Source: Octopus vulgaris
Lineage: Eukaryota
Reading direction: 5' to 3'
Assembly: GCA_951406725.2 (NCBI GenBank)
Contig: OX597842.1
Span: 29,016,001-29,080,000, forward strand
DNA: 64,000 nt
This document shows positions 22,274 to 63,480 of this stretch, one piece after another; positions within the stretch are counted from its first letter, which is position 1, and each line of letters opens with the position of its first letter. A program made the translations under genes and the position numbers. Under the pieces are notes generated by a model. The model did no database searches. It had not been told where the DNA came from and worked only from the letters and a program-made list of their open reading frames with translations.

Positions 22274-22470
22274 TCACTTTTCTTCTGATAGTAGACATTG
22301 AAGTGCCTCAGAGCATTCAGCTTCCTCAAGAGCTTTTCTGAGTGTTCGCATCTCTGGATCACAACTTGTGGACCATGTGTGTAGCATCTGGAAGCCCTGC
22401 TCTTCAATGTTATAAGGATTATTATACCTGATATTCCCCAGTTTGATATTTTTGATTCCTAAATTCCTGC
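22274..22470 (-). CDS. Terminal coding exon, rest of the Death domain ([33 protein letters not shown]...[22 protein letters not shown])
   Basis: ttgcag acceptor, TGA at 22274-22276; Death-fold pattern R.LG......I...NP....EQ...ML..W....L..AL. Confidence 0.88.
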
Positions 22471-25400
22471 CTGCAAAACATAAAGCAAAAAGAAATAATT
22501 TCAAAATCATTAACGATTACATAAAAGATGTGTACTGTAGTTTGTCATAAATGTAACAAATAAATTATGTCAATGAGAAATAGTTAAGAAACATAAAAAA
22601 ATAAATAAAAGATGTTGTCCTCTGTTTCTAAGAATGTTAATTAAATAATAACGAAGAGGTGGAAATACAGGATGAAAATGGTGAAGATTTTCAAGAAAAT
22701 TAATTGAAAATTACACTTGTGAAAATTTATTGTAAACAGATGGTAGGAGAAGTGTTTGTGTAGGCAAAAGTGTATGGAGAACCTAAAGAATGAATATAGA
22801 CCATCAACAGTCAATCCATTTGATCCACCCATCCATTGTCTCTGCTCAATATTCTTGGGAGGATTGTAAAGACAGAGTCTTCAGGCATCTCCTCCATAGG
22901 GTCCTATCAGAAGCAGCCGTCATTAGAGCTTTTGGTTGGGTTCCCAAACATAAACAGCTAAGACAATGGCTATCACCCAACCATTTAGCTCTTGATCTAC
23001 CCCTAGGACCCCTGCTCCATTGGTTTGGCTTGAAGAATCTGTCTTGTCATTTGTTCCTGCAACACGTCCGTAGTACCAGAGATGTGGAGAGGAACTGGCT
23101 CAACCTGGAGATATTCCCAAATCTCTAGACTATACATCCTATTTAGTATCATTACTCCAGAGACCCTTTAAAGGAATCCCATTTTGGCCGTTTGATAACA
23201 TTCCATAGTTAATGCCTGAAATAGTTGTCTGTGATGTTTCTCCTCTCCTGACTAATTGATAACTAAAGCATATCAAGAGTTAGAAATATCTACAAGATAT
23301 GGTTTGAACTATCAAACAATACCAGTACTATTAGGCATATCTGGGCCAATTCAAATACAAAGAGACAAGATACCAGAATGATCTCAACTACACAAAGTAT
23401 TGGGTTATTATCTCATAAATAATAATGCATTTGTTTTATACGTATTTTATTTCACAAAATTAAGATAATCAGAGTTCTTTTTTAATCTAAAATATACTCT
23501 CCTTCATTTTCTACAATGCTCTTCCATCTATCTGGCGCACTTGCAAGGCCCCTCTTCCAAAATTGACTTGTCCGTGACGAAAAATACTTCTCTACTACCG
23601 ATCTGACCTCATCTACAGGTAACATATTTTTTACATCCAAATAAGTTTGAAGACTGTGGAATAAAATATAATCAGATGGTGCAATGTCCTGTGAATGTCC
23701 TATTCAAACTACTCCAGCCTTTGGAATGTCATCCTCGCTGATTGTGGCCGAGCATTATCCTGATGCTGAACTTTTGTTCTAGTGCTGACTTAAGCCACTC
23801 AAGCTGCTTGCAGTAGATCTCCTTTGTTTTCATTTGGTTGGGGCTTAAAAGTTCAAAGAGGACTAAACCTTTCATATTTCCTTTCCTTACCCACTGTCTT
23901 CGCTGCTTGACATATTTATAGAGAACCCATTTCTCGTCACCAGTCACTATTCAGTTTAAAAGAGGTTCATTCGTGAGACAGGACCACAGAGAAGAGCACA
24001 CATTCACTCAGTGCGTGATCCATTGACCCAATTTGCTGACTTTTTTCAATAGAATGCAAGTGTCGATGAACAGTTGAATGACCGAATGAATAAGTGTTAT
24101 TTCCAGGGATACAGGCATCCAGCAACAGGACCTCCGTAATGCTATGATGGACCGTGAAGTCTGGCGTAGCATGGTAAATTCCATTGTCTCGACCACGGTC
24201 GAACAATGATGATGATGATGTTATTTCCTATTTACTTCCATCAAGAAATCAAAAGAAAGGACATCTGTTCCCTTCAACTGTTGCTTTTGTCATCTGGAGA
24301 TCAATGTTTTGAAACCTATTTCCAGACAGATTCAGTGCTGAGTCACTGAAGCAGAATTTTCTAGAACTATCATCAAGAAGTTTCTAAACTTTCCAAGAAT
24401 TTCTAGAACGTTCTGGCAACATAGATACCAGTGTAAAAAAAGGGATGATAAGATCACCAGTTCAGTTTATTTCTAACTATCCAAGAACTGCATTCATCAC
24501 AGATGGCATCAAGAGGTTGTAAGCATCTGGCAGATACATTCTGCTGTGTCTGTGGTGAATTTATCAAGACAACAGCGTAAAAGCACTGTGAAACAACATC
24601 AGCTGAAATGTGTGAGGTCTACAAGGTATATATTGTGACGAAAACAAAGTTTGAAGGAGATACTAGCCATTCTCGTATTTTCTAGGGTTAAGCAAATAGG
24701 AAATAACAATTGGACAAAAATCGTTGTTACCCAGTGTAACAGAGAGGTGTTAAGTTAAACCAAGCAAAGAGGAGAGTTTTAACTTGCAGGAAAGAAGACA
24801 GGAATCACCAACATAAACACCATCCACCTACGTACAATCAACCATTACATGTCAGTGAAGAGTGGTTCACAACTAAATGGACACTGGACAGTGGAGTGGC
24901 TGCAATGTGCCACTCACTATACACAGGAGCATGTAAAAAAGGATGCACTTAATGATGTAGTCCTATACTACCAACTGAAAGACAGAGATGTCCCACCTGA
25001 AACACTTTCCATCGTATTTCTGATTAAAACAGGCATTTTGCAAAGAAAAAACAACAAAACGTAAACTTAGTAAAAATATAAAACAAACAAAAAAAACTGG
25101 TCATTAACTCACCAGTTTACCCTTAAATGACATATTTTAATTTGCTCTCTCAAAAGACAATATTAAATCTATTGTGTCCTCTAATTTAGCCATTTTACTG
25201 GCCCTGCTAATCTCGGTGGATATTTTATGATGTTTTAGTAATACCAACACCTTTAATAGAATCACTTTACAGCTAGCCTTTCAATTGGAAAGTAGGAATG
25301 GGATCTTCTCTTAGTCATGCTGACAAACAAAAGCGGACACTTATTGAAATCAATTAAGTACTGTTATTTTATACTCACCAACTTGCTGCCATCTGATTCC

Positions 25401-28400
25401 TAACAATTTTGCAACATCTTGGAGACACTTCTCCTCTAACTTTGGAGTTTCTGAAATAAATATTTGCAACTGTTATACTTGAGAGTAAAAATTCTTTATT
25501 AATAATCTATATTTTATTATAGTGGGACATACCTGTCATCATCGCTGGTCATCGAGTGACCACTATGTTTTTGGTCAACATGTTTATGCTTTCTCCAGTG
25601 GGACCAGGTAAATAGCTCAATACTTAGGTCTACAACAAAATAGACTAACCTTCCTCAATTTCCTTTCTCTATTAAGACATCTTAAATAATCTAACAATGT
25701 TACAATTATCTCATTTAATTATCACTTGATAACACTGTTTTTCTTTTAGTTTTCATTTTTTCTTCTTATATATGTGCCACATGTATTTGAGATGTTAGAA
25801 GACTTCTTAATGAAGCAGATTTCTTTCCAGGTGGGCAATGATTAATTCTACAGAGGGGAGCAAAAACATATCAGGTATCCAAAAACACTTTATGCTTTCA
25901 CAAAATCTTATTAACTATATATAATTGTTCATCCATACATTATAGCAATAAAAAAACCTGAAATGTTGCATAAAAACTGATACTCAAGAATTTTATAAGC
26001 AAGGCAGGGATACAGATCAAACTGGAAGCATCAAATCTTTTATTTGCTAGGAAATGTTGGCTTAGCTATTGCCTTTAACCTATCTTCAGTTTGTGCCATG
26101 ACCTCTATACCTCTACTCTTACTGGACAATGAGGTAGCATACCATCGTCCAAAAGATTTTAGAGGTTTCTCTTTAACCCTTGGCATGGTTTTGTATGCTG
26201 TTTTGAACTTCACTTGCTTCAACTAACCTTTTGACAAATGACTGCATTAATTATTTGGTTTAAACCCCATTCTTGACCAAAGAATTAGTTAATCCAGTCC
26301 ATCCAGAACTATTTGCATACCCTTTTGGTCTCTTGTTAGTATTGTTATATCATCCTTTAAATTCCTTCTTGGGTGATTTCACTCGAGCCAATTCTTCTGA
26401 TCAATCTGCTGATCTAAGTAACATCTCCATAACAAGCACAAACCAAATGACTGATATTGTGCAACCTACAGCAATTCCAGTTTCCAAACGATGTCTGTTG
26501 TGAAATTTTCTGTCAGGAACCACATTTTGAAATTATTACAGCAGCTTCTAGCCAGATCTCTAATCTTCTCTCATATATAAAAGAAGTTCATTGGTTCCAT
26601 CACTAATTTGTGTGGTACAGAACCATAAGCATCAACCAGATCAGGTCATACAACGTTCAAATCCCTTTTATTCTTCTTTGTGTCTTGTATTGCATTGCAG
26701 ATTGAAAAATCATGTTCTACCCATCCAGTGGTTCTGGACATTCCAGCATCCTGGACACTCTCGGTCTCATAGTCATTATTTTGGAGATGTGTAGCTGATC
26801 TCTTGGCAACTGGACCCATATAAATCTTGCCATCTACATTCAAAATTGAAAAGGGTCTGAACTGCTCAATCAGTTCTGTTTCAGCTTTCTTTGGTAAGTA
26901 ATTTTTTTCTGCCTTGTACTAGTCATCAACCATTTCACCTTTATGCCACAACTCTTTAAGTACAGCTTATAACATAATTGTGTACAATACCTATACACTT
27001 TCTATGATACATCATCACCTCCTGGGGCACTCTTTGCTTTTGCCTTCTTCACTCAGCTATATAATTGTTTCTGCTAGAAACCACCAAGTTGAGATTTGAT
27101 TCGTAGTTTTTTGGGGGCATTTCAAACTGTCCATGAGTGGGAATGGATTATCTCACTTAGGATCAGTGTAGATCTCCTGTATGTGCCCCTCCAGTTCATC
27201 ATCATCACTTCACATCCTCTGTCCATGCTGGCGTGGGTTGGACAGTTTGACTGAGGCTGGTAAGTTGGAAGGCTGCACCAGACTCCAGTCTGATTTGGCA
27301 TGGTTTCTACGGCTGGATGCCCTTCTTAATGCCAACCATTCCCAGAGTGCAATGGGTGCTTTTACATGCCACCAGTATCTGCTACGACTGCAATTTTACT
27401 TGGCTTGATGAGTTGTCTTCTCAATACTTGGCTTAAAGGTCATGTTCTAAAACACCAAACAATCAGTCTCACCAAAAAGCCAACTGAAGTCTCACCAAAA
27501 TAGACAGAAAAGCGAAAGGTTTTACTTGATATGATTGGAAGAGATGATTCAGTTGGACAGCAATATAGTGTGGTAACGAGGGTTTTGAAAAATGAATGTT
27601 AATTATGAATTCTTCGATTAATACAAGTGGATAGATCTGTAGGAGAGAGTATGAAGTCAATTAGTTTGACATGTTATGTAACTTGTAATTGTTTTACTGA
27701 CCCGTGAGGAATGAAATGAAAAGTCAACCCAAGAAGGTACTGAACTCAGAGAATGAATGTTAATAATAATAATAAAAGCTTAATTCAACTACTAAAACAT
27801 TGTTTCTTTTTAAATGATACAATGTAATGACCAAGGTTAATCATCTGACAATGAGAGTAACCTGCAGTTAGCTAACATGGACATTCAGGCCTATAACTAG
27901 CAGAAATAAACCAGTAATGGCATGTTGTGGTTTCATGTAGTAGTGTGCAAATTGAAAACAGTTGAACGGGAATGGATAATATTAGTTTCAGATTTTGGTA
28001 CAAGGCCAGCAATTACAGAGGAGGGGACTAATTGATTACATCAATCCCAATACACAACTGGTACTTGCTCATCCCCTTGGCAGAAATGGACAAGATTAAT
28101 AGCTGCAAAAATAAAGCAGATTGTAACTGGTGAAATTTCAAATTAGTAAATAATAAAACAAAAAAGTTAAATATATATATATTGAGGTCAGTAGGGATAG
28201 CTAAAAAAGCTTTTCTAGCTATCCCTACTGACCACTAACCATACCTAAGTTGGATTTCATTTATTACATTTTATCCTGCTGCTCTTAGCATCTGCAAACA
28301 GCTTCCGAGTAACCTCACAAGGTTTCTTAACGAGCTGCTCTCTAATTCATTTACTTTCCTTTCTTCTTTCAACATGTCTGATATTTCTTTGCATAAGTTA

Positions 28401-31400
28401 GAGAGGAACGTTTAATTTTGTTGAATACATAACAATCTTTCTTGTACTTGTGCCACAATAAAATGCACCCAGGATCCTTTATAAAGTGGATGGTGTTAGG
28501 AAGGGCAGACCATCATAGAAAAGCTGGAATGTTTTAGTGGGACATGATCCTCAACCAACGAAGGTGGACAGTAACTGCTAATAAGAACTGACTTGGACAG
28601 TGACCCCCCCCACCATCTATTCCACAGGAACATGGAAATCAGATGATACATGATGAGGACAATGTCATTTATTGTATCTTGCAGCTAGTATCTATTAAAA
28701 AGAGAATGCGAGAGAGAGAGAGAAAAACAACAAAGAAGCAATGGCTATCTCAGTAGCAAGCCAGTGTTTTCTACTTCGATAAAGACAATGCGTTTAATGG
28801 ATGTAATGATAGATTTCCTATCAGTGACAAAAAGACAGGATGTTGACACTTGGAATGCATTTCATTGTAAGTCTGCCAGATTTTGAGAGACTCCTGCTAA
28901 AACAACAACAACTTATTAGTAAACACAGTATAAATGTAAAACGAAGGCCTTGTCGTTAAAGCACTTGTTCACCCCCAACCAAATAACATATTTTAGTTCT
29001 CTATTCCAAAAGACATCATTAACTTTTGTCTGTTCTAACCTTGGTGGGCATTCTCTTAAATTTCAGTAATTTCTTCAAAAGAATTATTAAACAGATAATT
29101 TTTCAATTGAAAATTAAGATTGGAGCCTGTTCTCAGTCCTTCTGACAAACAAAATATGCTCAAGTGAAGTAAAACTAATTTGAAATCACTTACGGACTTA
29201 TTTTATACTCACCAACTTGCTGTTGCTTAACTGCCACCTTCTTTGATGTGCTATGGGAGCGGTTTTCCTCCAAATTTAAACTCTCTGAAATAAATATTTA
29301 AAAGTTTTACAATATATAGTTAAATTTTTTAAAATTATTTTTCTTAATAGTCTATATTTTATTATTGTCAGACATTCCTATTATCAATGGTCAACTGGTG
29401 ACCATTATGGTTCTGGCTAATATTTTTATACTTTCTACCGTGATACCATGTTAAAGCTCAACATTCAGGGCCACCACAAAATAGACTAACCTTCCTAAAT
29501 TCCTCCCCTTTTCTCTCTCTATTAAGACTACATAATCTAACATTTCTGCGAATATCTCATTCAATTATCACTTGATAACACTGTTTTTCTCTTCATTGTG
29601 ACTTTTCTTTCCTACAACCTGTTCTCAGTCATTCACACAAACAATATAGCTCAGGTGAAAGTAAAATTTATAGAAATCAATTACGGTTATTTTATACTCA
29701 CCAACAGATTCTGCAACCATCTTGACTGCTTTTTCTTCAGACTTTGGACACACTGAAATAAGCATTTCAAAGTTTTATACTTCATAGTAAAATTTCTTTG
29801 TCTCTTTTAATAATCTATATTCCATTTTTGTAAGGCATTCATATCATCAATAGTCAATTGGTGACCACTATGCTTTCGGTCAACACTTTCTAAGCTGTTA
29901 CTATATAATAGTTCAATATTTAGAACCACAACAAAATAGGCAAACCTTTCTAAATCTCATCTTTCTATTAAGACATCCTATATACTAATCTAACAATTCT
30001 GAAATTCTCTCACTTAGTTATCACTTCATAACACTCTTTTTCTCTTAGTTTTGTCTTTCCTTTGTTATGTCTGTGCTGGTCACATGACATGCCATTGTCC
30101 TCTCATCTCGAACCTTCACTAACCAATATTCTTCTCATCTTCTGCTAAATTCCAGTGTCAACCAAACTGGTCTTCAAAGATCTGGCCACAAAGGCATGAC
30201 ACATTGCTTCAGGAAGGATAAACATACCCCAGCTCTCATTTTTATATGTTACTGTTGGTAATCTTTAATTTTAACTGCCCACATCACACTTCACCAGAAT
30301 ACCACCTGATTCAGAAAAGATCTGAAGATATTTCAATGTCATTCATCCTCCTTAATAAGCAGCTTTTTCTTTTTCCAGGTGAGCAATGATTAGTTCTACA
30401 CAGGTGGAGCAGAAAGTGATAACAGGTATCCTGAAACATTACATTTGTATAAAACCTCCTTAACTTAAAACTGTTTATCTACACGTTATTGCAAAGGAGT
30501 TATATCTGAAATGGGACACTAGAATTCATTCTCAAGAATATATAAGACTCGCTAAGAGTCAGATCCTTAAACTCTCAGTTGAGATTTTGTCATTGAAATT
30601 CTTACATTACAAAGCTGACTGTGATGTTGTAGGAAGTACTGTTGTCCTTAATTATCAGTTTCCCAAGATACTTATAAATCATTAACCTCATATAAAAGCT
30701 GACAACTGAATATAAAAAGTTGATGTTTACTGATGGGACCTTGGAGATTTATTGATATTTCATTTATATTTCAGTAAAACGTATTAGTCTTATGTTGCAG
30801 ACAGTACTCTTTTGATGTGGGACAGGTTTCCTACATGGATAAAGACAATATTCAGTGGGTGTAGTCATGGATATACTATCAAAGGGAAAAGACACTTGGG
30901 ACATCTTTTATCATACGTCTGTCAGATTATGACAGATCTGGGTCGATACGACATTATTCCATTCCATAATGTCATGTGACAAACAGACAGATCATCAAAT
31001 CATATTCTTACCAACTCTCCTTTTGCTTTCTATACATGTTTTACACTTGGGACATCTTTTAAGTTGGATTTTGCTACAATCTTCACATAAAACAGTATGT
31101 GCACAGGGTTGTAACTCCATGCTGGCTTCTTTCTCTTCACAAAACATACATCTGTGGAAAAAAACATAAAACACATCCCACCTATAACATTCATTTCTAA
31201 CAAATATTACATGTTTGTTTTATGTTTACAGTACAGAATATTATGAAACACCAGACTGACCAGAGTGAGGTGCATGGCTAAGTTGTTAGGCTTTTGGACT
31301 CCTAGAGTAAAATTGCGGTTTCAATTCCTGGACAAGGCGATGTGTAAAGTTCTTTAGCAAAACACTTCAGTCTAGGCTTGCCCTGCATACAAACCTGCCC

Positions 31401-34400: not shown

Positions 34401-37400
34401 GATATATATACACACACTGTTTGGGTGTGTAGTTTATTTTCTTATGAAACCTTTCATAATAATGAACTGATTGGAACAGAGAAGAGAGAGAACATGTTGG
34501 TAGACAGATAAATTCCATTTGTTTTTATGTAACAACTTCAAAATCTGTTCATTCACTTCACTGTTTAGTTCTACATTTTCTTATTGGTCACAAATCTTTA
34601 AAATAGGGAACTAAGAAAGGTAGATGGGTGGTGGTAGACAGTGAGGTACAACTACCAACCCAAACAGTGCTCTTCATTGGATCACATAACAACTGCATTT
34701 TGTTTATTGTTCTTCATACTATTGTTGTGTGGCCTTTGATCAAGACACTATGGCAGTATAATGTATTGGTAGAATTAAAATTAAACAAACATAAACATGA
34801 TTATATACAAAATAGAAAATAAACTGTCACTGCCAATGAATACTTACTGTCGTGGCAGGAATAATTCTTTAAATTTTTCTTTCAAATCTGCATCCCCAAT
34901 GAGGTCCAATGGAGCTACATTCTTATTATTTTTCGTGTACAAGTTGGCCCCCTGGTGGGCTAGATAGCCAGCGACTGCTACACCAGAGAGCCTCTTTTCG
35001 ATCGGCAACCCAAGCTTAGCACAGCACTACAAATGACAAAGTATAAAATGATGATTACAATATTTCACAAATATACTTCGTAGATACCCAAATTACACAA
35101 CAGTTCAACTACGTATACAAATAGTTTGTATCTCCAGCGCTTAAACTGATTGCACAATATTAAGTTCCGACATCATCTCTAATTGAATCCATTTCCCATT
35201 TTCATTTGTTTTTAGTCTATTCTCAACATTATGACATATTTTATATATATGGTCATTATATTAAACAGAACAAACATTACTGATTAACATCAAGTTTATT
35301 GGTAATTAATGCGTAAATAATTATTTGCCAATCACAAATATCACAAGATATTCAATAAAAAACAATTTAAAACCAAATCATAGCATCAAGTCAAATATAT
35401 GGAATATAATGGAACAAACGTCACAAATATTAGAACACAACAAACTATCTATTCAACTAGCTTGGTGAATCCATAAATGGCCATCACACAAGAAATATGG
35501 AGGAGTATTGTATATATAAATATAACACAACAACATGACAGCAAACAAGTTACATGAGAACTGAGAATACTTAGAACAGACACAACAACAAAAGCAACAC
35601 CACACAGACATATCCAAAAATAACAATGTTTCCATAATTAATAAAGAAACCTCTTTGGATAATGAAGGTGAAGTAAAGGAAGTAAGAATTAGTGTCACAG
35701 TTGAGGCAGCACACCAACACATTATAGTTAATAAACTGCTCAAACTGTTAGACAATTCCAGTTGGGTGGGTAGCTGACTGCAAGAGTGGCTTCTTCTCAC
35801 CAAAGTAGACATTACTACAATTTACATATGATCATCAAATGTCTGAAATAGAGTCACACATCAGTAGTGACCTTTATTTATACGGGAATCAAAGAGTCGA
35901 TTGAATTCTGAAACAGTAGACAATATATACCATCAGATCTCCCGATGGATACATGTTGATGCATTTGTTTATATATATATATATATATATATACAGAAAG
36001 AGAGAGAGACAGACAGAGAGAGAGAGAGAGAGAGACTGATAAATAAATATGTAGTTGAACATACACAACCTACATACAGGAAAACACACCAAGGACCTTC
36101 CTTCATTGTATCCATTCTCTAGTGTTCTAACATTCAACATTCTGATGACATGTCTACAGGAAACCAGTGGATACACATTGTGTGCAAGATGTGTGATAAA
36201 GAGTCGTTTCGGGAAGAATTCTTCCCAGAATGGTCTGGATGCATTTATCATGGCACCAGCATTATAAAGGTTATCGTCTATCATGTCCCACAGACCTCTC
36301 CTCCTCCCTGTTTCATTGTTATTTGGGAATGTCTCCTCTTTGTCATTGGTCACCTTTCCTTCACACTGTGATGGCTGTGTTTATATAGCCAACAAGATGG
36401 GTTACCTCCTTTACAGGGGAGAGAGCATGCCTTCGAGGGTGAAAGGAGATGGAATATAGTTAGTTACATAATATAACTAGGGTTATCTGGATTGACTGGA
36501 TTACTTAATACTAATGGAAGAGAGGTGGATGGGAGTGAATAGACATGGCAAGCAATGTCTGCCCGTTTCTCTATTTCTCTCTCTTTATCTTACACACACA
36601 CACACAAGCTCACACTTCTACTCATCCTCCTCATCATCATTTAATGTCCATTTTCCATGCTGGTGTGGGTTCAATGGTTCAGCAAGGGCTGGCCAACTGC
36701 AGAGCAGCTCAGGGTCCAATTGCCAGTTTTGGCATGGTTTCTGTGGTTGGATGCCCTTCCTAATGCCAACCACACACACACATTCACAAACAATTTTAAA
36801 AACTTACCTCATCTAAAATGGTAATACGTTCCTCCTCAGAACGAAATTCCTGTTTCTCTGCTGCAATATGCAAACAATTATTGCCATCCTTCTCGACGGC
36901 ATTCATATTTGCACCGCACGTGATAAGTTTGTGGACTATTCCGATGTGGATTGCAGACACGGCTTCCAGTAAGGGTGTTCTTTTACGATTGTTCGCAATA
37001 TCCAGTTTCACTGAATCCTTTGTGGAAGTAAAAATAGAAATTGAAAATGTACATGAAAATTAGGGTGGATGTGTCATTGCTGTCTTCTACTGGGTACTTG
37101 ATCAACCTGATCATGTACATTTGATGTTTGTTAGTGTAGTCAACCTTCTGTAAGGTCCCTCTATAACACGCTATGGATATTTGTTAGGGACATGATAAAT
37201 CTATTAAGATGTCATAAACAGATTGTTTCAGCCTCATCTTCATTTATCCCTCACTATATAGTATGTTTTAGGGGACTAGAACAAGAGTGAAAATATAATT
37301 AGCAGATCAAGTCTAGTAAAGACGAATTATATACTTAATGTAAGCCTTTCATGTTGCTATGTTAATAAGGGATCCATAAAAAGGGGGAGTTGGTTAGTGT

Positions 37401-37627: not shown

Positions 37628-40059
37628 CATGCATATATGGGTACAAGACATAAAAAAAACGAACACAATGAGAAACGAAAACATAGAAATGAACTTTTCT
37701 TCGAACAACTACAAAAAACAAACAGATCTCTTGGATCCACTTTAGACAGCCTCTCCTTCTCTCACGCGTTCTCTACATTTAGGAGCCTTTCATAGTGGCA
37801 CTTCCAAGCCTATTTCTTTGCAGAGTCACTAACTGCAACGGAGCCATCATCCATGTGAACACACTTCTCTCCCACAACATCACAGTTTTCCTTGGCAAGC
37901 CAAAACACTTCAAATCTCTGCTCCTCACTTTGCAAGACATTGGCAAACTTCTTCCTTTCTGCTTCACTCATGGCTGAGTATACCTGCTTCCTAGCTTCCT
38001 TTCTAACTGCCAGATACAACTCCCAGCTGCCACCACCCTTCCCATCCTTGTCCCTGTCAATTACCCTTTTCCACCACCACATCACCCTACGCCTGGCTGG
38101 GACATTGCACCAGCCACAAATTTGGTCTGAAACTCTCAGCAAGTTGTCCCATTGGAACTTCCACTTATCCTCAATGCTGCAAGTCTGAAATTCCTCCTCC
38201 TTCCCATTATATGCTTCATTTAGGACATCACTAAATTTCTGACTAATTGAAGGTTCCTTCAGCTTCCATACTCTTCTTTTCCAAACTGGCTTGCTTCTTG
38301 GAATCCTTCAAGCCAGTAGCTTGAACTCCCTAATGAGTAACCTATGCTGTGGGCTACATTCTTCTCTATTGAAGGCCTTTGCATTTATGAGCAGACATGA
38401 ATCCTGCTTTTGGGTGAGAATGTAGTCAGTTTGGTGAGCATGTACCTTGGATTTATAGGTTATCAAGTGGCTGGCCGGCTTTCTGAAGCAAGTGTTGCGA
38501 TTATTTGGTCATTTGCACCACAGAACTCCAGTAGCCTTGCACTCCCCTCATTTCAGGAACCAAATCTGCATCCTCCATGGAAGATACCTCGGTGCTGCCC
38601 AACATATCCATTGAAATCACTGGCCACGAAGATAAGGTCACAGTCATTTATCTTTGAAGTGGCCAGCAGAAGAGTGTCATAGAAGTAGCCCTTCAGTTCA
38701 TTTGGCAGACCCAGTTGTCTGTGTGTGTGTGGGGAGGAGCGCATAGGATGAGATGATTGTTGCTGTGCCTACATTGACTGCAGCTATCAGCATCTGAAAA
38801 GGTTGTTTATGGACACCTGTAAATAGGAGTTAATCAGGTATTGTCACCACCAGCAGTGGAGGGTGCCGCATCCTGGCATTCATGCAATGCAATGTTAATA
38901 CAAATACAGGTAAATAAGTTAGGTAGACAAATACAGTAAGGGTAGTTAATCCGCTGAGTTAGGTAGGGAGAGGACAAGGGAAGTTGATTCATCATGTATT
39001 GATGGTAATGGATTAACGAAGCAATAGGGACTGAGTGCAGCGTACCCTCATTTAGCTTTGTTGCTGGGGACAAGGACCTTTAACTTATCTCTGCTGCATA
39101 ATCTGAGTGTGCAATGTGTCTGGCAAGAGTAACTCTCTCTCTGGGTATACATATATATATATATACACATACATAGACATTTATACATATGTGCAGAGGG
39201 AAAAAAGCAGCCAAGAAGCGAAATAAATTATTGGATACAAGATAAAATGCAGACACCAACAATTTACACATAACACACACACACACACCCACAACATGAG
39301 AGACAGACATTAAAAGATGATGATCATCATTATTTACATTATTTACATTATTTACATTTGATGGATATTTGTCCTCATCTTGTTTGTTGTTAACACAATG
39401 TTTCGGCTGATATACCCTCCAGCCTTTGTCAGGTGTCTTGAGGAAATTTCGAACCTATGTTCTCATTCCAAAGGTATTTTTCAATGTTATTATTATTATT
39501 ATTATTATTACTATTATTATTATTGTTATTATTATTCAAGTCACTGCCTGGAACTGAACTCGGAATCTTGAGGTTAGTAGCCTGTACTATTAATGATGAT
39601 ATATATAATCTGATATATATGGGTTGAATTCATAATGACCTTGTTTTGTCTGACCATTGAAGATAGTACTGTCAGCAGTGGTGGTCAGTTGGACTGTCAA
39701 CACCACTACTACTGTCATCATTGTTATCACCAATATAATTATTCTTCACAGACCCAAGACCTGCCGTTTAAAGGCTGCTGCAGTGAAGTTGATTAAACCT
39801 ACCCACCACAATTTCACTGGTATTTTGATGATATTAATATCGAATATTAAAGACAGGATATAATTATGTATTTGTTAACTAACCTGGGCCAGCATTGAAG
39901 CCACCACATCATAGTGTTGCCTGAAAGTTATAGAAAGAGGAAAGGAAAAAAGAAAATTATAATCAGATTAATTAAAACAAATTTAATTGGGTCATTACAA
40001 CCTAATTACATCAATAATTACTTACACACATATACATATTATACATGTATGTATGTATG

Positions 40060-40489: not shown

Positions 40490-42835
40490 CACAAAATAAG
40501 AAAATGGAGAAATACACCTTAATGAATAATCAACTACCAGATAATACCCAATCACATAATTTATTAACCAACTACATATGAACATCAAGGTCAAACATAA
40601 TAGTACAGAACAAAACAATGCACATCAATGAGTAATATGATACAATAAGTAAAGGAACCGAAACATGTAAAATTCATAAGAAAATTAAAATTTATCTAAT
40701 ATAGTAGCGTTTTCAAACCTCTTTTTTACAAATATATATATATTTATATATATATATATATATATAAACAAATACATATACCCGAAAACAACCACGCACA
40801 CATATATGTATATATATACATACACATACATACTGTTAACTAAAATAGTATTAAGAATCATTAAAATTAAGATAATATTAATTGTTAATACAACGAAAGG
40901 GGTTGGAAGGGTAATTCGTAATATACAAAAAAGAGGGGCCTAAAAGGGTAGAAAGAGGTAAGGGTTAATAAAAGGCAAAGGTTGGAAAATATTGAGATAA
41001 AATTTATAAGAAGGGTATAAACTCAAAACCCAGATTTACCATAACCAGTGTAAAGAAGATGTAGGTTATTTGCATAAGATACATAATTAAAAATTACACC
41101 ACATATTCCGTAAACAATCAGAAGACTAGGAAACCGTCCAGATATCAACACTTGTAAATTTTATCTGAATATTTTCCAACAGTAATCAGACACAAGAACA
41201 GGAGTAAAGAGGGAGGACAATTTATTAAATGAACCCCCTGGATATTACTGGTACAGATTTTGAGCCCAGGAGTTGAACTTGGAACACAAACGGATCAAAG
41301 TAAGGGGATGATTCTGCATTTAGCCCAGGGCCAGAGGAAAGAGGAAAATTTCAAGAGAAGGGGTGGTGAGGTGTTTTACATGGAATGAAAGGAAGAAGGG
41401 AGAGGATTTGAACCTGTAACGTTGAGGTAACGAAGGATGAGATGAAGTAAAGAATCCAGTCAGGTAACAACAACAACAACAATAATTATGATGATTAATT
41501 AATGAAGTTAGATTACAGTGTCATTAGAGTGTGAGAGAGAGAGAGAGAGGGGTGAAGCATGACGACCCATGGTGGGATTATGACATGAATGACTCGAAAC
41601 AAGAAAACAAAGATTAAAGAAACAGATTTGGATAATCCAAATCCATTGGGGACTTACTTTTGAACTGCCAGATGGAGAGGGGTGTCACCCTCGAGGTTCA
41701 CCTTATTGACATCGATGCCATTCTGTTTCAGGAGAAAATCAACAACATCCTTGCGTCCATGAGCAGAGGCAAGATGTAGAGGGGTGAGACCATGGTTGGT
41801 CACAGCATTAACATCCGTGCAATTCTGTTGCAGGAGAAGTTCAACAACGTCCTTGCTTCCATAGCGACAGGCAAAATGGAGAGCTGTCCAACCTTCGTTC
41901 TCCACAGCATTAACATCCGTGTCTTTATGTTTCAGGAGAAGTTCAACAACGTCCTTGCTTCCATAGCGACAGGCAAAATGGAGACCTGTCCAAACAGCTT
42001 TCTGCACAGCATTAACATCCGTGTCTTTATGTTTCAGGAGAAGTTCAACAACGTCCTTGCTTCCATATTGACAGGCAACATGGAGAGCTGTTGCACTAAA
42101 ATTATTTCGCTGATTAACCTAAAAAAGATAAACAATAAAGACATTAAAGATGGTGTTTATTGGGGAAAGAAGGAAAAAAATGAAAAATGTCAGAAAAACA
42201 GAATCAGATTAATTTAAACAGGTGGAATGAAAGGTGAGGGGAAAATAAATGAGATTTATAATGTATCTATACACACACACATTTGTGTATGCATATATAT
42301 ATATATATACACTCTCGCACATACATATATACATAAATACCTATATATACATACGTGTTTTATATCTTCACGGATCATTTGTTTATGCATTTTTGTGTAT
42401 ATATGCGTTTATGTGTGTGTATATTTGTGTATGTATGTACAGGTCTGTGTGAGCTGAAGAAAAGTTTTTAATTAAAAAAAATATAAATATAAACTGTTTC
42501 ATATACATAAAACACAAACCAACATACATATCATTATACACACACACACATATATATATATATTCGCTGACCTGTAAATTGTTATTTTCTTTGCTATTTA
42601 ACAGGACTTTGACTACATCTTCATATTTATTCTCCACAGCCCAATGTAGAGGTGTTTCGCCCCATGAGTTCTGCTTATTAACATTTGCTCCTCTGGAGAC
42701 TAAGAAGGCCACAGCATCAGTTTTGTGGCTGAAAGGAAGAAAAACAAACATAAAACATCACATTCCCTTAATAATTACATTAAATATACACTCGTGTTCC
42801 ATTAAATGCATAAAAACCTATGTATACTACAGCCT

Positions 42836-44859: not shown

Positions 44860-47800
44860 ATATAAGTTAAACTCCAGTGTTTGACTCGAGCAAAAAAAAA
44901 TTGTGCAATAGGTGTAAAATAAAATGTATTAAACGAATATGTAAAAAAAAAATACACTCTGGCGAACGAGGGGCGGTGGAGACGACTCGGAAAATTCACA
45001 CGATCAATCTCACAGGATCCGAAAACTACATGTTGTTTTATACCTGTTACACTTTTTGTTTTCATTTTTGCGACCGGTTGTCGAGTGGGGTTACCGGATC
45101 GTGTGAATCATCCGAGTCCGCACCCCACCCACCCGCCCCGTCACAAAAATTGAACAAAAGTAGAGTACTGGGTGTAAAATAATGTGTAAAATACGAAAAT
45201 GAAGAACAAAAAATTCGCCGACGAACGGGGAAGTGGTGAGATTTGAATTTTCCGAGTCGTCTCCCCACCTCCCGTTCGCCATATTTTTCTTTTTCATATA
45301 CGTTTACTACATGTTGTTTCACACCTATTGCACTATTTTTTTTCCTTTTTTCTTTGCTTGGGCCAAACACTAGATTTTAACCTAGTGTTTCCCTCCTCTG
45401 TCTTCTCCATCTGAAGGAGCCATGTCCCTCTTCTAACGCAAGACACCTTTCTCTCCAGCAATATTAGCTCCCCCACTTCACCACCTCAACCAGTCGAGAG
45501 GTCTTTGTCTCGCAATTAACTGGTGACCTCACTGGTTTGGATGGCATGTAAAAGGCATCCAGTACACTCTGCAAAGTGGTTGGTGTTAGGAAGGTCATCC
45601 AGCCATAGAAACCAAACCTAAGCAGACAGTAGTGTTTGGTGTGGTCTTCTGACTTGTCTGTTCCTATCAAACCCTCCTACCCATGCCAGCATGGAAAAGG
45701 AACATTCGATGACAATGATGGTGTGTGTGTGTTTGTGCAAAATTCTGGAACAATTTGCGACTGCAGTAGCTATAGAAACTAACAAGAACTTCAAAACATG
45801 TTTTATTGTCCAGAGATGACCTTATGAAGCACAATTCAAAATATAATAGATCTCAAAATGTGTTGAGTGAGTTGCAGATGGAGGTGAGAAATAATTTCTG
45901 TAAGAAATTTACAGATTATTTACTGTCAAAACAAGCTAGAGAATCTTTCTTGTTGCTTTAGATCTCAAATAACATTTTCTTTGGAGAAAAATTGATCGAT
46001 CTCCCCATAATCAATATGAAGAGAAGACACTGAATCAGAATGGGTCAATCTTAAGAACTGTTGGCTCTCAAAGAATATTTCCATACTTTGTTATATATAT
46101 ACTGATATGTATGCATGTATGTATGTATAGGATGACTCACGAGTCATCTTCGTAGTCATAAAGCGAGACAGATGAGTGACAACCTGGCCACTGGTGGTGG
46201 TGTAACGCACCATACTAATCATATCTGTTTTGACAAAAAATAACGAAAAAGATTTTTGTGATTCAATGAAGAGGATTCATGGAGAAAATGAGAAAAAGAT
46301 GTTATTTGGTTACTACTATCATGTTGTTATCGTGTCACACTGCCACTATTATGGTATCTTTGGATATTCAAATAGTCTGGAATTGCAAAAGATTTCAAAA
46401 CAAAAGCAGATCTGAAGATTTTAATTAATTCAAGCCTTACCTTTTCACAGCATAATGTAAAGCTGTCTGACCTCCTATGTTACTCATGTCTATATTGGCT
46501 CCAGATTCTATCAAGAAGTCTATGAGACTTGTGCTGCCCTGTTCACAAGCCGCCATTAAGAAAGTTTTACTGTCTGAACCTTTTTGGTTGACCTGAAGAG
46601 AAGAAAGAGAAGATATATAAAATATATCAAAGGAGAGAGAGAGAGGAGGGAAGAATAGAGAGAGAGAGAGAGAGAGTAAAGAAGATGCTGGAGTGAAAGA
46701 AAGAGATATGAAAGACGAAGAAAGAAAGATACACACACACACACACACCAGTGTGCAACATGAAATAAAATGTCTTGCTGAAGAATACAACACACAGCCC
46801 AGACTGGGAATCAAACTCACTATCTCCTGATTGTGAACCTGTTGCCCTAACCATTGAGTCATGCGCCTTCATATACATATACACACATACACACACACAT
46901 GTATGTATGTATGTATGTATGTAAGGGTGGAGGAACTCTTGAGAGTCAACAGCCTTCCAATAAATGTCTTAAGGCTGTATCATGCACGGGAACATAGAAA
47001 TAATTGGACTGAATACCCGATCGCGCGGTTAAACCATTGGGAGTGAAGGACTCCTAGCCTTTGTTTGGGCATCCTTCTAGGCGAAGGTAACTCAGGTAAC
47101 TGGGATAACTCCGGCATAAAACCTGCAGCTCAGTGGTTGCCGATGATGTTGAATTGTTCTTCTTTTCGGATTATGGCTGCTGTTGCTTAGTGAGTGGGAT
47201 TGACTCAGTGCACAGCCTTTCCTCACTTTAAAAAAAATCTTCTTGCACAGGCATTGCACGATAACAACATTGATTAAGCTTCGTACAATGGCCATACTCG
47301 ATAACGAGGGGGCAGCCATCATATATATATGTATGTATGTATAGTTCCAGTCATTCAAGTCCCACCACTGGTCTAAGTACAGTAAAGCTACAACTTCAAA
47401 TTCTCACAAACATTTAACTTAGACATTGTTACCTAATTAGATTACTATATCCATACTTTGTTATATATATACTGATATGTATACATGTATGTATGTATAG
47501 GATGACTCACGAGTCATCTTCGTAGTCATAAAACAAGACAGATGAGTACAATCAGTACAAATATACCATTTCATGGTAGATGGAAGAGTCTTTCTTATGA
47601 AACATAAGATGTCTGTCTTAGGGAAAAAAAAATCAGTTGAGAAAATCTACCAGTTTATTACTGGTATGTATATCAATTATGAATTGAAGAGAATACTGAC
47701 AAGATTTCAAATGTGGTATCTGATAGGAGACACACAGGTAAATAAGAGAAACCATCTACACAAAGCAACTGTAGGGATTAGGCAATAAGATGGTGTATAA

Positions 47801-49762
47801 AGTAACTGAACAGGGGAAGAGCTATAAAGGGTCAAAACCTCAGAAATAATTGTGTAGATTCTAAATATATCAGACTCGATTTTAGTTTAGTATTCCCTGG
47901 TAAAGCTCATGAAATTCTACACTGTGTTATCACTGATGCCTGGCATAGTAGCACTTTCATTTAATGCTATAATGATGAAGGAGATTTAAATGATGGTGAG
48001 AGAAGAACAGGATGTTTGAAATGAAGCATGGATCTTCAGATGTCATATGTCTGGCGAAACAGGAACATAAGATCTACTTGGAAAAGAATGAAAGCAAATC
48101 TACAAGAAAGGTGTAGAGCACAGGTAAATCAAGGTGAAAAAGGCTTAGAAAGACTGTTTAGTTCATGCTAAGCTCAAGGAAAAGATTGAAAATCTATTTA
48201 TGTTAGTCACTGAATCTATTACAAAGTAATTACTTGTAATTAGACATCTGTGACATCTTTGGAACGACACCAATCACAACTAAATATGAGCAACTATGGA
48301 AAAGTAGACACAAATGAAAAGAAACAATGAAGAAAATAAGAAATATTCTGAAAGTAGGGATCAGAATTTTGAGCCTAAATGAGGCAGCAGCAGTGTCAGG
48401 GCTTACATTAGTTTGTAGCCATACAATATGTAAGAAGGTGTGAGTGGTTCATACACAACTGTATTACACCTGTACAAAAAAACACTATCGACTTCACCTT
48501 GAGGAAAACACCTACCCTCACTAAACTGGCAGACATTCACCCACCATTGAAATACATGTATGATGGTCATCAAGAAATTAAAGGATGTTTTTTCTGCATT
48601 TCACCATTTGTCAGCTGTCTTCCCTCCCAAATTAAAAGCCACATTTTCTGGTCTCTTACCTAGAGTATCTCTATAGATTTTACAAAATCATTCCACCCAC
48701 CACTCCCTAACCATGATGGTTCTATACCAGTGCTTCTTAAACTTTTCAATTATGGCCCTTTTTTATTTACTAAGAGTTTTTCAATGCCCCTTTTCTTGCT
48801 ATGATTCAATATCTCTGATTTTTAATGTTCTCACGGGTCAGATTAATTTACCTTTGGGTCCTAGTCTTGACATGGGTGACTACTTACCACAGCACCACCC
48901 CACAATAAGTGAACATTTGATGCATCACCACTTCACTTTAGTTTCTGATCCAAACTCAACTACACATTGAGTTTTATATATTTGTACGACCATAGCCACC
49001 TTGGCTCCCTGGTCCTTATAAAATTTTCCACAAACCCTACCCAAGGGTAGCACTACTCTCTTAGGAAGCCCTGTTTTATAATTCTTGCTGATAGTGTCCT
49101 ATCTGCTGACTACCAGCCAGTCATTCTAACTTCCAATATTTCAATTATGAAGTAAAAAGTCATAAACAACCATCATCTTTGTCCCTTTGGGTATCTTTCT
49201 CTATTCAATGAGCCCCAGAACAGTTCCATAAAACCGGTTCAAGCAGAGGTCTGATTCCTACGTGACTCCCCAGTGTTTTGGTTATGTTTGACAACTTCTG
49301 CAAAAGAAATACTGTAGCCCATGACATCGGTAAAACCTTTAACTGTGTATGGCAAGAGAATTTCTTGACAAAGTCATCATTTATCTATTGGGTCCATCTG
49401 TCCCCCATCTCTTGGACTGAATATTTCCTGCCAGAATACTCCATTGCAGTGTGTAAGGATGGGTTTCTCTCTCACTCACATTCCATCAATTCTGGCATAC
49501 CTCATTGTCTGGTTGAATATTTATAAAAAGTGACAATGATGAGGATTAGAGGAAAGAGGTAAAGAAAGAAATGAAATATTAAGGACAAATATATCTGGTT
49601 ATTTAGGAACATTTAATATTGTGTATAAAATAATAAACAAACATTTAACATTGAAGAAGCAATATAAAGTAAACTTACTTTATCAGGATTTTCTTTGATA
49701 AATCGTTTCACATCTTTAAAGTCCCCATTCCGAATCTTGCTTATAATCTCATTTACATCCAT
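22274..49762 (-). CDS. Spliced gene: ankyrin-repeat + RING-HC + Death-domain protein (Mind bomb/MIB2-like C-terminal half fused to a Death domain); putative E3 ubiquitin ligase, about 603 aa with all exons
   Basis: Exons 49679-49762, 46441-46592, 42572-42728, 41658-42118, 39884-39920, 36808-37017, 34848-35026, 31012-31151, 29702-29752, 29213-29284, 25379-25450, 22274-22470. All have AG/GT boundaries with matching phases (0,2,0,2,0,0,2,1,1,1,1) and sum to 1812 nt with no internal stop. TPLH-type ankyrin motifs, [42 protein letters not shown] Death domain. Confidence 0.88.
22830..23210 (-). mobile_element. Decayed RTE-like LINE 3' fragment in the last intron
   Basis: ..[21 protein letters not shown] motifs. 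Confidence 0.5.
23398..24090 (-). mobile_element. Mariner (DD34D-like) transposase remnant
   Basis: [10 protein letters not shown]; FELL..YCKQL; QDNARP; related terminal fragment at about 56030-56150. Confidence 0.8.
24105..24218 (+). mobile_element. Very short 5'-truncated LINE 3' end with target-site duplication
   Basis: [24 protein letters not shown]...* plus (GAT)n tail, flanked by TGTTATTTCC at 24095-24104 and 24219-24228. Confidence 0.75.
25379..25450 (-). CDS. Coding exon 11, Death-domain helices 1-2 ([24 protein letters not shown])
   Basis: tatttcag acceptor, gtgagt donor, 72 nt; L..VA..LG..W pattern continues in phase into the terminal exon. Confidence 0.85.
26030..27140 (-). mobile_element. 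Decayed RLE-type (HERO/NeSL-like) LINE reverse-transcriptase fragment
   Basis: GSVPHKLV; [22 protein letters not shown]; [13 protein letters not shown]. Confidence 0.6.
29213..29284 (-). CDS. Candidate exon 10, 72-nt phase 1-1 paralogue of the Death-domain first exon ([24 protein letters not shown])
   Basis: tatttcag acceptor, gtgagt donor, open frame; same length and QQV|G end as 25379-25450. Confidence 0.6.
29702..29752 (-). CDS. Candidate exon 9, 51-nt phase 1-1 paralogue of the Death-domain first exon ([17 protein letters not shown])
   Basis: tatttcag acceptor, gtgagt donor, open frame; flanking introns homologous to those of 25379-25450. Confidence 0.6.
31012..31151 (-). CDS. Coding exon 8, RING-HC finger ([46 protein letters not shown])
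   Basis: C-x2-C-x11-C-x-H-x3-C-x2-C-x7-C-x2-C; ccacag acceptor, gtaaga donor, 140 nt. Confidence 0.92.
32700..33250 (+). mobile_element. Highly decayed CR1/L2-like RT fragment
   Basis: DYHPVSLT; [15 protein letters not shown]; QGTTLG remnants. Confidence 0.5.
34848..35026 (-). CDS. Coding exon 7 ([59 protein letters not shown])
   Basis: ttgtag acceptor, gtaagt donor, 179 nt; resembles the split last ankyrin repeat of Mind bomb proteins (A..A.FL...GA.L...N.....PLDL). Confidence 0.88.
36808..37017 (-). CDS. Coding exon 6, ankyrin repeats ([20 protein letters not shown]...[12 protein letters not shown]...ILDE)
   Basis: caaag acceptor, gtaagt donor, 210 nt, phase 0-0. Confidence 0.88.
37750..38760 (-). 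mobile_element. RTE-like LINE fragment (AP-endonuclease to RT linker) in intron 5
   Basis: [27 protein letters not shown]; QHRLL; [27 protein letters not shown]. Confidence 0.75.
39392..39437 (-). ncRNA. Decayed minimal hammerhead motif in intron 5
   Basis: Minus strand GACAC-CTGACAA-A-GGCTG(10 nt)CAGCC-GAAACATT-GTGTT; stems I and II intact, core G8 mutated. Confidence 0.55.
39884..39920 (-). CDS. Coding exon 5, 37-nt exon ([12 protein letters not shown]) completing an ankyrin repeat
   Basis: ctttcag acceptor, gttagt donor; bridges phase 2 to phase 0 and supplies the second helix of the repeat. Confidence 0.8.
41658..42118 (-). CDS. Coding exon 4, about 4.5 ankyrin repeats including three near-identical 34-aa units
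   Basis: tttag acceptor, gtaagt donor, 461 nt; (T)[16 protein letters not shown]...DVNAV three times, then LTPLHLA and [11 protein letters not shown]. Confidence 0.93.
42572..42728 (-). CDS. Coding exon 3, ankyrin repeats ([31 protein letters not shown]...)
   Basis: tttcag acceptor, gtcagc donor, 157 nt, phase 2 to 0. Confidence 0.9.
42940..43545. repeat. MITE-like element with direct and inverted subterminal repeats
   Basis: ttcagatgg..attatatcggaattt at about 42975 and 43125; inverted at about 43310 and 43475. Confidence 0.6.
46441..46592 (-). CDS. Coding exon 2, ankyrin repeats ([19 protein letters not shown]...[10 protein letters not shown])
   Basis: ttcag acceptor, gtaagg donor, 152 nt; ankyrin consensus [13 protein letters not shown]. 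Confidence 0.9.
49679..49762 (-). CDS. Coding exon 1 ([28 protein letters not shown])
   Basis: aaag|acATG acceptor, 84 nt, gtaagt donor; resembles a first, capping ankyrin repeat and joins exon 2 in phase 0. Confidence 0.75.
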
Positions 49763-57197: not shown

Positions 57198-58380
57198 ACA
57201 CCCGCTCAGGTAGGTGGCCCTGCTCGATTTGTAGAAAAGGTGTAGGTAGAAACTCCATAAGATGTACCCAGTGTAAACTATCGACACATAAGAGGTGCAG
57301 CAACATCAAAGGAAGGTTGACCATAAAGATAGCTTCCATGTGAGGCAGATGCACGGGGGCAATAGACAGCACAGATACTCAGAAAACAGATTCCATCACA
57401 CTCCAGGGCAAGAAACTAGAAGTAGTAGATAGCTTCCACTACCTACGTGTGCAAGTTAGTAGTGGGGGTGGATGCTCAGAGAGCGTCACCACTAGAATAA
57501 GAATAGCCTGGGCAAAGTTTAGAAAGCTCCTACCCGTACTGGCGACAAAGGGTCTCTCGCTCAGAGTGAAAGGTAGATTGTACGATGCATGTGTGCGAAT
57601 TGCCATGCTTTACAGCAGTGAAACATGGGCTGTGATTATGGAGGACGTGTAGGCTTGAAAGAAATGAAGCTAGCATGATCCGCTGGATGTGTAATGTCAG
57701 TGTGCATGCACGACAGAGTGTAAGCGTCCTGAGAGAAATGTTGGAGATAAGAAGCATCGGATATGGCGTACAGGAGAGACATTTGTATTGGTATGGTCAT
57801 GTACTACGGATGGATAAGGAAAGATGTGTGAAGAAGTGCCACTCCCAAACTAGGGTAGAGGTAGACCCAGGAAGACATGGTAAAAAGTGGTCAAGCATGA
57901 CCTTCGAATGTTGGGCCTCACACAGGCAATGACAAAAGACCAAGACCTCTGGAGATATGCTGTGACTGCGAAGACCTGACAAATAAAGTGAATTCATGGC
58001 TTGCAGGACGGCCTGCTGTGCTTACCTTGGATCGTAGGGTGACCTGCAGTGCTCGAGGAGACCAACTGAGTCAAGTACATCAACATCAAAATAAAAATCA
58101 AATGGAAATTGTAGTTCGGATACCCATGCCAGTGGCACGTAAAAAGCACCAACCGATCGTGGACATTGCCACCCTCCTCTGGCACCTGTGCCGGTGGAAC
58201 GTAAATTCACCACAAAACTCATGGAGTGGTTGGCGTTAGGAAGAGCATCCAGCTGTAGAAACACTGCCAGATCAGACAGTTTGACAGGGGTCTGGGAAGC
58301 TGATCCTGGCTTCCCAGACCCCGGTTGATCCGTCTAACCAATGCTAGCATGGAAAACGGACGATACACGATGATGATGAT
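57198..58380 (+). mobile_element. RTE-clade LINE, 5'-truncated second copy of the same family
   Basis: SGRWPCSICRKGVGRNSIRCTQC..RIRIAWAKFRKL with stops and frameshifts; same 3'UTR and (GAT)n tail. Confidence 0.92.
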
Positions 58381-61160: not shown

Positions 61161-61194
<34 letters not shown>

Positions 61195-61221
61195 TTTATG
61201 TTAAGCAGCAGAAAATTCAAC

Positions 61222-61269
61222 AAAATCTGTTACTCTGAGTTTCTCGTTGCCGTTCATCAGACAGTTTTT
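61222..61269 (-). ncRNA. Minimal type I hammerhead ribozyme motif (inverted-arm copy)
   Basis: Reverse complement of 63334-63381. Confidence 0.72.
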
Positions 61270-63333: not shown

Positions 63334-63381
63334 AAAAACTGTCTGATGAACGGCAACGAGAAACTCAGAGTAACAGATTTT
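63334..63381 (+). ncRNA. Minimal type I hammerhead ribozyme motif
   Basis: ctgt-CTGATGA-aCG(GCAA)CGa-GAAA-CTC(A)GAG-TA-acag: stem I CTGT/ACAG, GNRA-capped short stem II, stem III ACTC/GAGT, GUA site. Confidence 0.72.
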
Positions 63382-63480
63382 GTTGAATTTTCTGCTGCTT
63401 AAAATAAAGCATATTACTCTACCACTGGTATTTGAGTACTCTTTCTTCCATCTTGTTTCACATTTATGTGTTTACTCCGG

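Follow-up and report, generated by a model that had tools for sequence, protein, structure and literature searches.

Gene layout and three related exons between the RING exon and the last exon

The stretch of DNA analysed here (the window) comprises 64,000 nucleotides of Octopus vulgaris contig OX597842.1, positions 29,016,001 to 29,080,000 of the forward strand in assembly GCA_951406725.2. It was found that a 12-exon gene model on its minus strand, running from 49762 to 22274, stays open for 603 amino acids when three small exons, named A, B and C in the order of transcription, are all included. The encoded order is ankyrin repeats, a C3HC4 RING, A, B, C and the last exon. C is the true first exon of a Death domain. 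I consider it rather probable that tandem duplication of this exon produced A and B, that these are spliced in between the RING and the Death domain as a spacer predicted to be disordered, and that such copies in other members of the gene family likely became docking sites for LC8, the motif being missing from the copies of the window gene.

Coding exon 1 (49679..49762, 84 nt) starts with the ATG and is homologous to the N-termini of the proteins P0010 and P0050. Ankyrin repeats are encoded by exon 2 (46441..46592, matching the O. vulgaris record P0001), exon 3 (42572..42728), exon 4 (41658..42118; Pfam Ank_2, E 4.9e-49) and exon 6 (36808..37017; Pfam Ank, 28.2 bits). Exon 5 (39884..39920) has 37 nt, and exon 7 (34848..35026) covers the end of the ankyrin region. 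Self-BLAST of exon 4 revealed internal 102-bp tandem repeats with 84% identity (41667-42091), and the number of ankyrin repeats differs between paralogues. Exon 8 (31012..31151) ends in phase 1 and encodes an intact C3HC4 RING with eight zinc ligands (Pfam zf-C3HC4_3, PF13920, 34.8 bits against a cut-off of 27), which may be predicted to function as a ligase. A, B and C follow as exons 9, 10 and 11, and exon 12 (22274..22470) encodes the remainder of the Death domain and the stop codon. Exon 12 was scanned alone from the window and matches positions 23-81 of the Pfam Death profile (PF00531) at 16.2 bits, under the cut-off of 22.6; the Death-domain assignment is taken from two paralogues, P0013 and P0005, which reach 31.9 and 35.8 bits when exon C is included. 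P0001 (CAI9744100.1) matches both the RING exon and the last exon at 100% identity. This public model omits exons 1, A, B and C together with part of exon 6. Since A, B and C are missing, P0001 has no recognisable Death domain, and Pfam Death gave no match in it at E 0.05. The present model corrects this record. Comparison of 22274-31151 with P0005, P0013, P0029, P0073 and P0089 showed that RING type and Death-domain type are shuffled among the paralogues; the window gene combines a CMxCE-type RING with an ETPKL/GRNLG-type Death domain, and other pairings occur elsewhere, which suggests recombination within the gene cluster.

A (29752 to 29702, 51 nt) encodes a unit of 17 residues, a shortened copy of the Death-domain first exon that carries CPKS and reads KAVKM where paralogues have KAVQT. 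B (29284 to 29213, 72 nt) encodes a unit of 24 residues, a full-length copy; it is identical at 24 of 24 residues in two paralogues and is also present in O. bimaculoides. Both units are rich in lysine. C (25450 to 25379, 72 nt) encodes the first helices of the Death domain, and paralogues with C are identical at 22 of its 24 residues. A first-pass annotation of the window, made from the letters alone, had given the coordinates, lengths and translations of these exons correctly. It had also claimed symmetric 1-1 phases with open frames and lengths that are multiples of 3, shared acceptors (TATTTCAG) and donors (GTTG at the exon end followed by gtgagtataaaa), homologous flanking introns, and an LG..W signature in one exon only. 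All of this was confirmed, C alone having LG..W. Exactly 3 copies of the 19-nt donor word are present in the window, where 100 shuffles lead one to expect 0.02, and the upstream introns of A, B and C are 77-80% identical pairwise across about 310 nt. All four skip forms tried on the 12-exon model (BC, AC, C and none) remain in frame.

In self-BLAST, the homologous units span about 450-890 bp. Unit A with its homologous intron lies at 29618..30565, unit B at 28781..29614, and unit C with its flanks at 24936..26018. The matches are 24936-25768 with 28781-29614 (E 4e-89), 29126-29610 with 29618-30063, and 25341-25777 with 29668-30076; a fourth joins the upstream flank of unit C (25803-26018) to 30348-30565 in unit A. 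This fourth match suggests that the Death-domain first exon was initially duplicated as a block of about 1 kb with its flank, and that a core of about 490 bp was then recopied, which would have placed A beside B. In a MAFFT alignment, the exons are less similar than the introns (54-63% versus 77-80%; Fisher p 3e-5 for B and C). B and C are 54% identical without gaps, and their introns 80%; free gapping gives 63% for B-C and 75% for A-B and A-C. Homogenisation of the introns, or constraint, possibly accounts for the excess divergence of the B and C exons. Positive selection on the exons is not claimed, since third codon positions are equally diverged (13 of 23 differ between B and C) and gapped alignment lifts the identity.

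Probable inclusion of A and B and their predicted disorder

Exon joints were taken from contigs of four runs (X1, X2, X7 and X8) from four studies, presumed to be RNA; the analysis covered 15 of the 44 joints and 24 of the 651 loose ends, matched at 92% likeness. Among the joints listed, those with CT..AC ends sit exactly on the predicted boundaries of A, B, C and the RING exon. The B-C joint was found in three of the four runs, A-B in two, RING-A in three (the first base varies in one row) and RING-B in one, and C-D was seen as loose ends in X7 only, among the loose ends listed. All four runs have contigs that match the RING-to-A intron at about 99% (5-9 differences in 630-719 nt). Mutually exclusive splicing had been offered as one explanation of the three exons. 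Since A-B and B-C joints were found and paralogue models contain A, B and C together, mutual exclusion is ruled out; the exons are tandem, homologous and of equal phase, and they are co-included. An A-to-A back-joint was set aside as a sign of circular RNA because the letter at the joint differs (X2), which is what a paralogue with A-type exons in tandem would produce. Two intronic joints, 25196 to 29126 (four of four runs) and 25735 to 30045 (two of four), connect flanks of different units among the joints listed; they may come from paralogues or haplotypes with deleted units, or from cross-mapping.

Gene models of this sort are usually built from RNA reads. I retrieved 63 models from O. sinensis and O. 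bimaculoides, some being old and new versions of one model. The second Death-domain exon is present in 60, and 59 of these keep the first (47 of 48 in O. sinensis and 12 of 12 in O. bimaculoides), which speaks against the proposed switch between a working and a broken Death domain. Exon C is likely constitutive. The units before it vary. An O. sinensis locus with 21 isoform models shows 15 of the 16 possible combinations of four A-type units, with the Death-domain exon in all; the nine models of LOC115225502 vary in A units and B, and O. bimaculoides isoforms likewise differ by single units. The O. bimaculoides protein P0028 is modelled as RING-B-C-D, with B identical to that of the window gene at 15 of 24 residues and C at 11 of 24. 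Thus, B is old. Linkers in the family contain 0-6 units in register with the Death-domain first exon. The proposal of a new linker built from duplicated first exons is borne out as to its construction, and fails as to its novelty in the window gene. A variable spacer, also proposed, is seen in the paralogue gene models; skipping at the window locus itself is a prediction. Inclusion of A and B occurs in the family and is likely for the window gene. It is likely that A and B serve as a spacer between the RING and the Death domain and not as an exclusive switch. A sequence search across 1.84 billion representatives added many members to the family; the ten that were looked up all belong to Octopus. 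In a separate paralogue (P0127 and P0218), a unit of 24 residues behind a VQT-type unit retains KCLQ and W..V of the Death-domain first exon; it might represent an intermediate stage of decay.

The structure of the spacer was considered on the AlphaFold2 model of P0005, which is built as RING-A-B-C-D and shares 24 of 24 residues of B and 22 of 24 of C with the window gene. Residues 183-224, which correspond to A and B, have a pLDDT below 50 and no helix. A helix starts at residue 230 within exon C, and the Death-domain blocks have pLDDT values of 86-96. A and B lack LG..W and did not qualify as Death-domain helices when this signature and the core leucine of helix 1 were looked for. Pfam gave no match to B alone, likewise none to C alone, and A was too short for the scan. 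A and B are predicted to be disordered on the model of this one paralogue. Foldseek with the P0005 model returned ankyrin matches only, among the matches listed, and a search of the ESM Atlas with residues 340-563 of P0216 found no usable feature match (best TM score 0.37).

An LC8-type core in the spacer units of the family

LC8 (DYNLL) is a dimeriser with the consensus [D/S]-K-X-[T/V/I]-Q-[T/V]-[D/E] in disordered segments, according to the accessible part of PMC3078936. Its usual anchor is the glutamine (PMC12057147, in excerpt). The available sections of PMC6607443 state that a hydrophobic residue at +2 is poorly accommodated, that many anchor-bearing peptides fail to bind, and that dimeric partners bind much tighter. 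Beyond what the first-pass annotation contained, I found an LC8-type core in the spacer units of the family. The core [KR]x[TVI]Q[TV] was scored in one longest-linker protein from each of 17 clusters, made from 75 proteins with a RING and the first Death-domain exon. There are 17 matches per 738 linker residues and 0 per 5460 other residues, and 10 of the 14 clusters having a linker contain the core. In 5000 shuffles, the mean was 0.29 and the maximum 4, which is not a probability because the pattern was noticed before the test and the units share ancestry. The 82 other search matches contain 6 cores in 28310 residues. Words such as EDKGVQTD, EDRCVQTE, EVKETQTL and SDKGVQTV occur in the linkers of many family members.

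The core is placed regularly within the units. These were cut by hand-set lengths, leaving out B-type units, one unit of 12 and one of 22 residues, and proteins without a RING or a Death domain. Outside the cluster of the window gene, the core stands in register in 14 of 18 distinct units, two of which share their first 14 residues. It is found in 0 of 16 Death-domain first exons, where position -1 is leucine in 16 of 16. At the other loci, positions -1, 0 and +1 (V-Q-T) have 69-78% pairwise identity; outside the core, motif-bearing units average 30%, and six of the other eleven positions have 11-28%. All 17 anchor triplets also have K or R at -3, and 13 of the 17 distinct motifs have D or E at -4. 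What counts most is that the core is conserved among units that have otherwise diverged. A complex prediction of the LC8 dimer (L007, DYNLL-type) with residues 180-240 of P0006 scored 0.62, against 0.52 for an unrelated control, and is not used as evidence.

These observations are consistent with the following history. After duplication, the copies would have lost LG..W, and helix 1 of the Death domain would have changed in register from K-x-L-x-x-V-A to K-x-V-Q-T-x-A. Phase-1 symmetry would let single copies be skipped independently, so that both the length of the spacer and its count of LC8 sites change. An LC8 dimer, if it binds, would bridge motifs of two chains and favour self-association of the RING and the Death domain. 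The window gene would have lost the motif, leaving variation in length only. More tentatively, and as a possibility that I would not yet favour, the Octopus-restricted family might use duplication, loss of the anchor glutamine and combinatorial skipping as a dial of LC8 valency for dimerisation and for ubiquitin and Death-domain signalling, with CPKC cassettes perhaps restoring, in one paralogue, the fourth zinc pair that its RING has lost, which would make the ligase splice-dependent.

Alternative readings, known systems and other features of the window

Several findings weigh against LC8 docking and against splicing at the window locus itself. At the anchor, A of the window gene has the codons GTC AAG ATG for V, K and M, and it lacks the core. 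Since K and M stand at the Q and T positions, the exons of the window gene are likely mere length spacers. Its B lacks the core too (the identical B of P0013 scored 0), and its cluster keeps the core in only 5 of 24 units, with Q and K at the anchor in a ratio of 12:12. At +2, just 5 of the 17 distinct motifs have D, E or P, and V, L or A stands there in 9. No spacer whatsoever is present in at least 3 of the 17 clusters, and tandem duplication is a frequent source of symmetric disordered exons in the accessible part of PMC3632108. The spacer could then be inert and variable in length, its VQT words being inherited from one ancestral copy and binding nothing. I regard this as unlikely, though worth serious attention: the identity of V-Q-T at other loci, far above that of six of the other eleven positions, and the K or R at -3 in every anchor triplet are not expected of inert sequence. 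As to the transcripts, the short side of the joints has just 19-29 letters, and paralogues could supply them; the RING exon of the window gene is 78-96% identical to those of five other O. vulgaris proteins, and 93-96% identical to four of these. P0013 is modelled as RING-B without A, and so, with RING exons this similar, the RING-B joint is not proof of skipping at the window locus. Joined forms may also exist in DNA, the joints having been compared with presumed-RNA runs alone. Cross-mapped reads among near-identical paralogues could create or inflate isoform models. Exon 12 contigs in X1, X2 and X8 carry at least 6 letters between 22371 and 22423 that depart from the window; the differing letters hold nearly all the depth there, the window version is absent among the rows listed, and these contigs are paralogue-type or allelic.

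The last points bear on whether A and B are dead pseudo-exons at the window locus, with joints derived from paralogues, as would also fit the public model P0001, which skips A, B and C, and joints that are not locus-specific. This is hardly credible, since the splice sites equal those of C, the frames are open, contigs like the RING-to-A intron occur in every run, and B is fully conserved in two paralogues and partly in O. bimaculoides; the first-pass annotation had named pseudo-exons as the finding that would overturn it. Splicing might instead select A, B or C and thereby yield a working or a broken Death domain, C-less isoforms acting as decoys. The frame stays intact after C skipping, the O. 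sinensis model P0220 lacks the first Death-domain exon as the exception among the 60, and so do 9 of 17 O. vulgaris models scored as having the second exon (20 models in all; the scoring pattern missed P0077). C-skipping joints are possible beyond the 15 joints and 24 loose ends listed. This reading is quite improbable, given the A-B and B-C joints and the retention of C in nearly all O. sinensis and O. bimaculoides models. The O. vulgaris models without C are taken for annotation gaps in which small exons were missed, because exon 1 and a portion of exon 6 are absent from P0001 too. Slightly less credible still is another role of the units, either as lysine-rich acceptors of self-ubiquitylation beside the RING or as zinc-binding cysteine pairs (CPKC/CPRC). 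The lysines of A and B agree with it, and in a paralogue without the last CxxC in its RING exon, the match to the Pfam RING profile continues into a CPKC unit where one follows (4-48 in P0041 and 4-45 in P0035, against 4-39/40 in P0036 and P0040). The bit scores, however, fail to separate these isoforms (23.5 and 29.8 versus 24.6 and 28.0), the RING of the window gene is intact and its A has CPKS, and V, Q and T are the most conserved positions at other loci. LC8 docking by copies elsewhere in the family, with A and B of the window gene as spacer, remains the reading that I prefer.

The RING-deleted paralogues (P0030, P0032 and P0035-P0061, from O. sinensis and O. vulgaris) have lost the last CxxC by a deletion of five residues, and optional CPKC or CPKS units follow their RING exon. 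A cassette might complete the RING there; a single-sequence AlphaFold model of P0035 was uninformative on this point (pLDDT 40). In the same paralogues, an alternative acceptor of the Death-domain first exon drops five residues.

Mind bomb proteins have an N-terminal region of Mib-herc2, ZZ and MIB repeats and several C-terminal RINGs. The octopus gene resembles MIB1 and MIB2 in having ankyrin repeats followed by a C3HC4 RING, and its relatives are named 'MIB2-like' in databases. The nearest natural fold match to the P0005 model, among the Foldseek matches listed, is the ankyrin region of MIB1 (8v0e; 30-31% identity, ranks 3 and 10, E 5e-4 to 8e-4). Unlike Mind bomb, the octopus gene has one RING, spacer cassettes and a C-terminal Death domain, and Pfam scans of four window exons, P0001 and P0216 found no Mib-herc2, ZZ or MIB-repeat N-terminus. 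Duplicated exons are mutually exclusive in Dscam. The octopus exons share with them the tandem homologous arrangement and equal phase, but they are co-included and probably skipped independently of one another, and just one encodes the domain. Exon B of myosin Va is an alternatively spliced LC8/DYNLL site in the accessible part of PMC3078936, where LC8 binding depends on a short alternative exon within a flexible segment. Instead of one exon, the octopus family has a variable array that goes back to a Death-domain helix; some copies bear the motif and others do not, and LC8 binding is putative. ASCIZ and KANK1, as far as the excerpts describe these multivalent LC8 clients, have several motifs in a disordered segment, and valency tunes their activity; in the octopus family, exon duplication and splicing would set the valency one exon at a time, in the segment that links a RING to a Death domain. 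Tandem-duplicated, alternatively spliced symmetric exons that encode disorder and short motifs are already a known kind, as the available text of PMC3632108 describes; unlike those, the octopus exons are traceable to a folded-domain exon in the same gene. No description of the RING to Death-domain linker of this family was found in the literature searched, in which subscription journals were sparsely covered and where cephalopod genome supplements may bear on novelty, and no paper joining LC8, a death domain and a ubiquitin ligase was found in it.

If LC8 docking is true, the family would show a traceable change of a folded-domain exon into a short linear motif, and a splice-coded control of oligomerisation would be added to an ankyrin-RING-Death-domain family. 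One family retains the source exon, full-length decayed copies, and shortened copies with and without the motif, and natural peptide controls are at hand (KAVQT versus KAVKT or KAVKM). The window gene alone gives a modest result, a spacer without the motif, and most of the interest comes from the family.

Elsewhere in the window, 61189-62177 and 62425-63414 form an inverted repeat of 990 bp with 99.5% identity and a 250-bp spacer, which is either a recent palindrome or an assembly artefact. Two inverted remnants, at 1823-2930 and 57198-58162, are 84% identical and share one type of reading frame, which I take to be like that of a long interspersed nuclear element (LINE).

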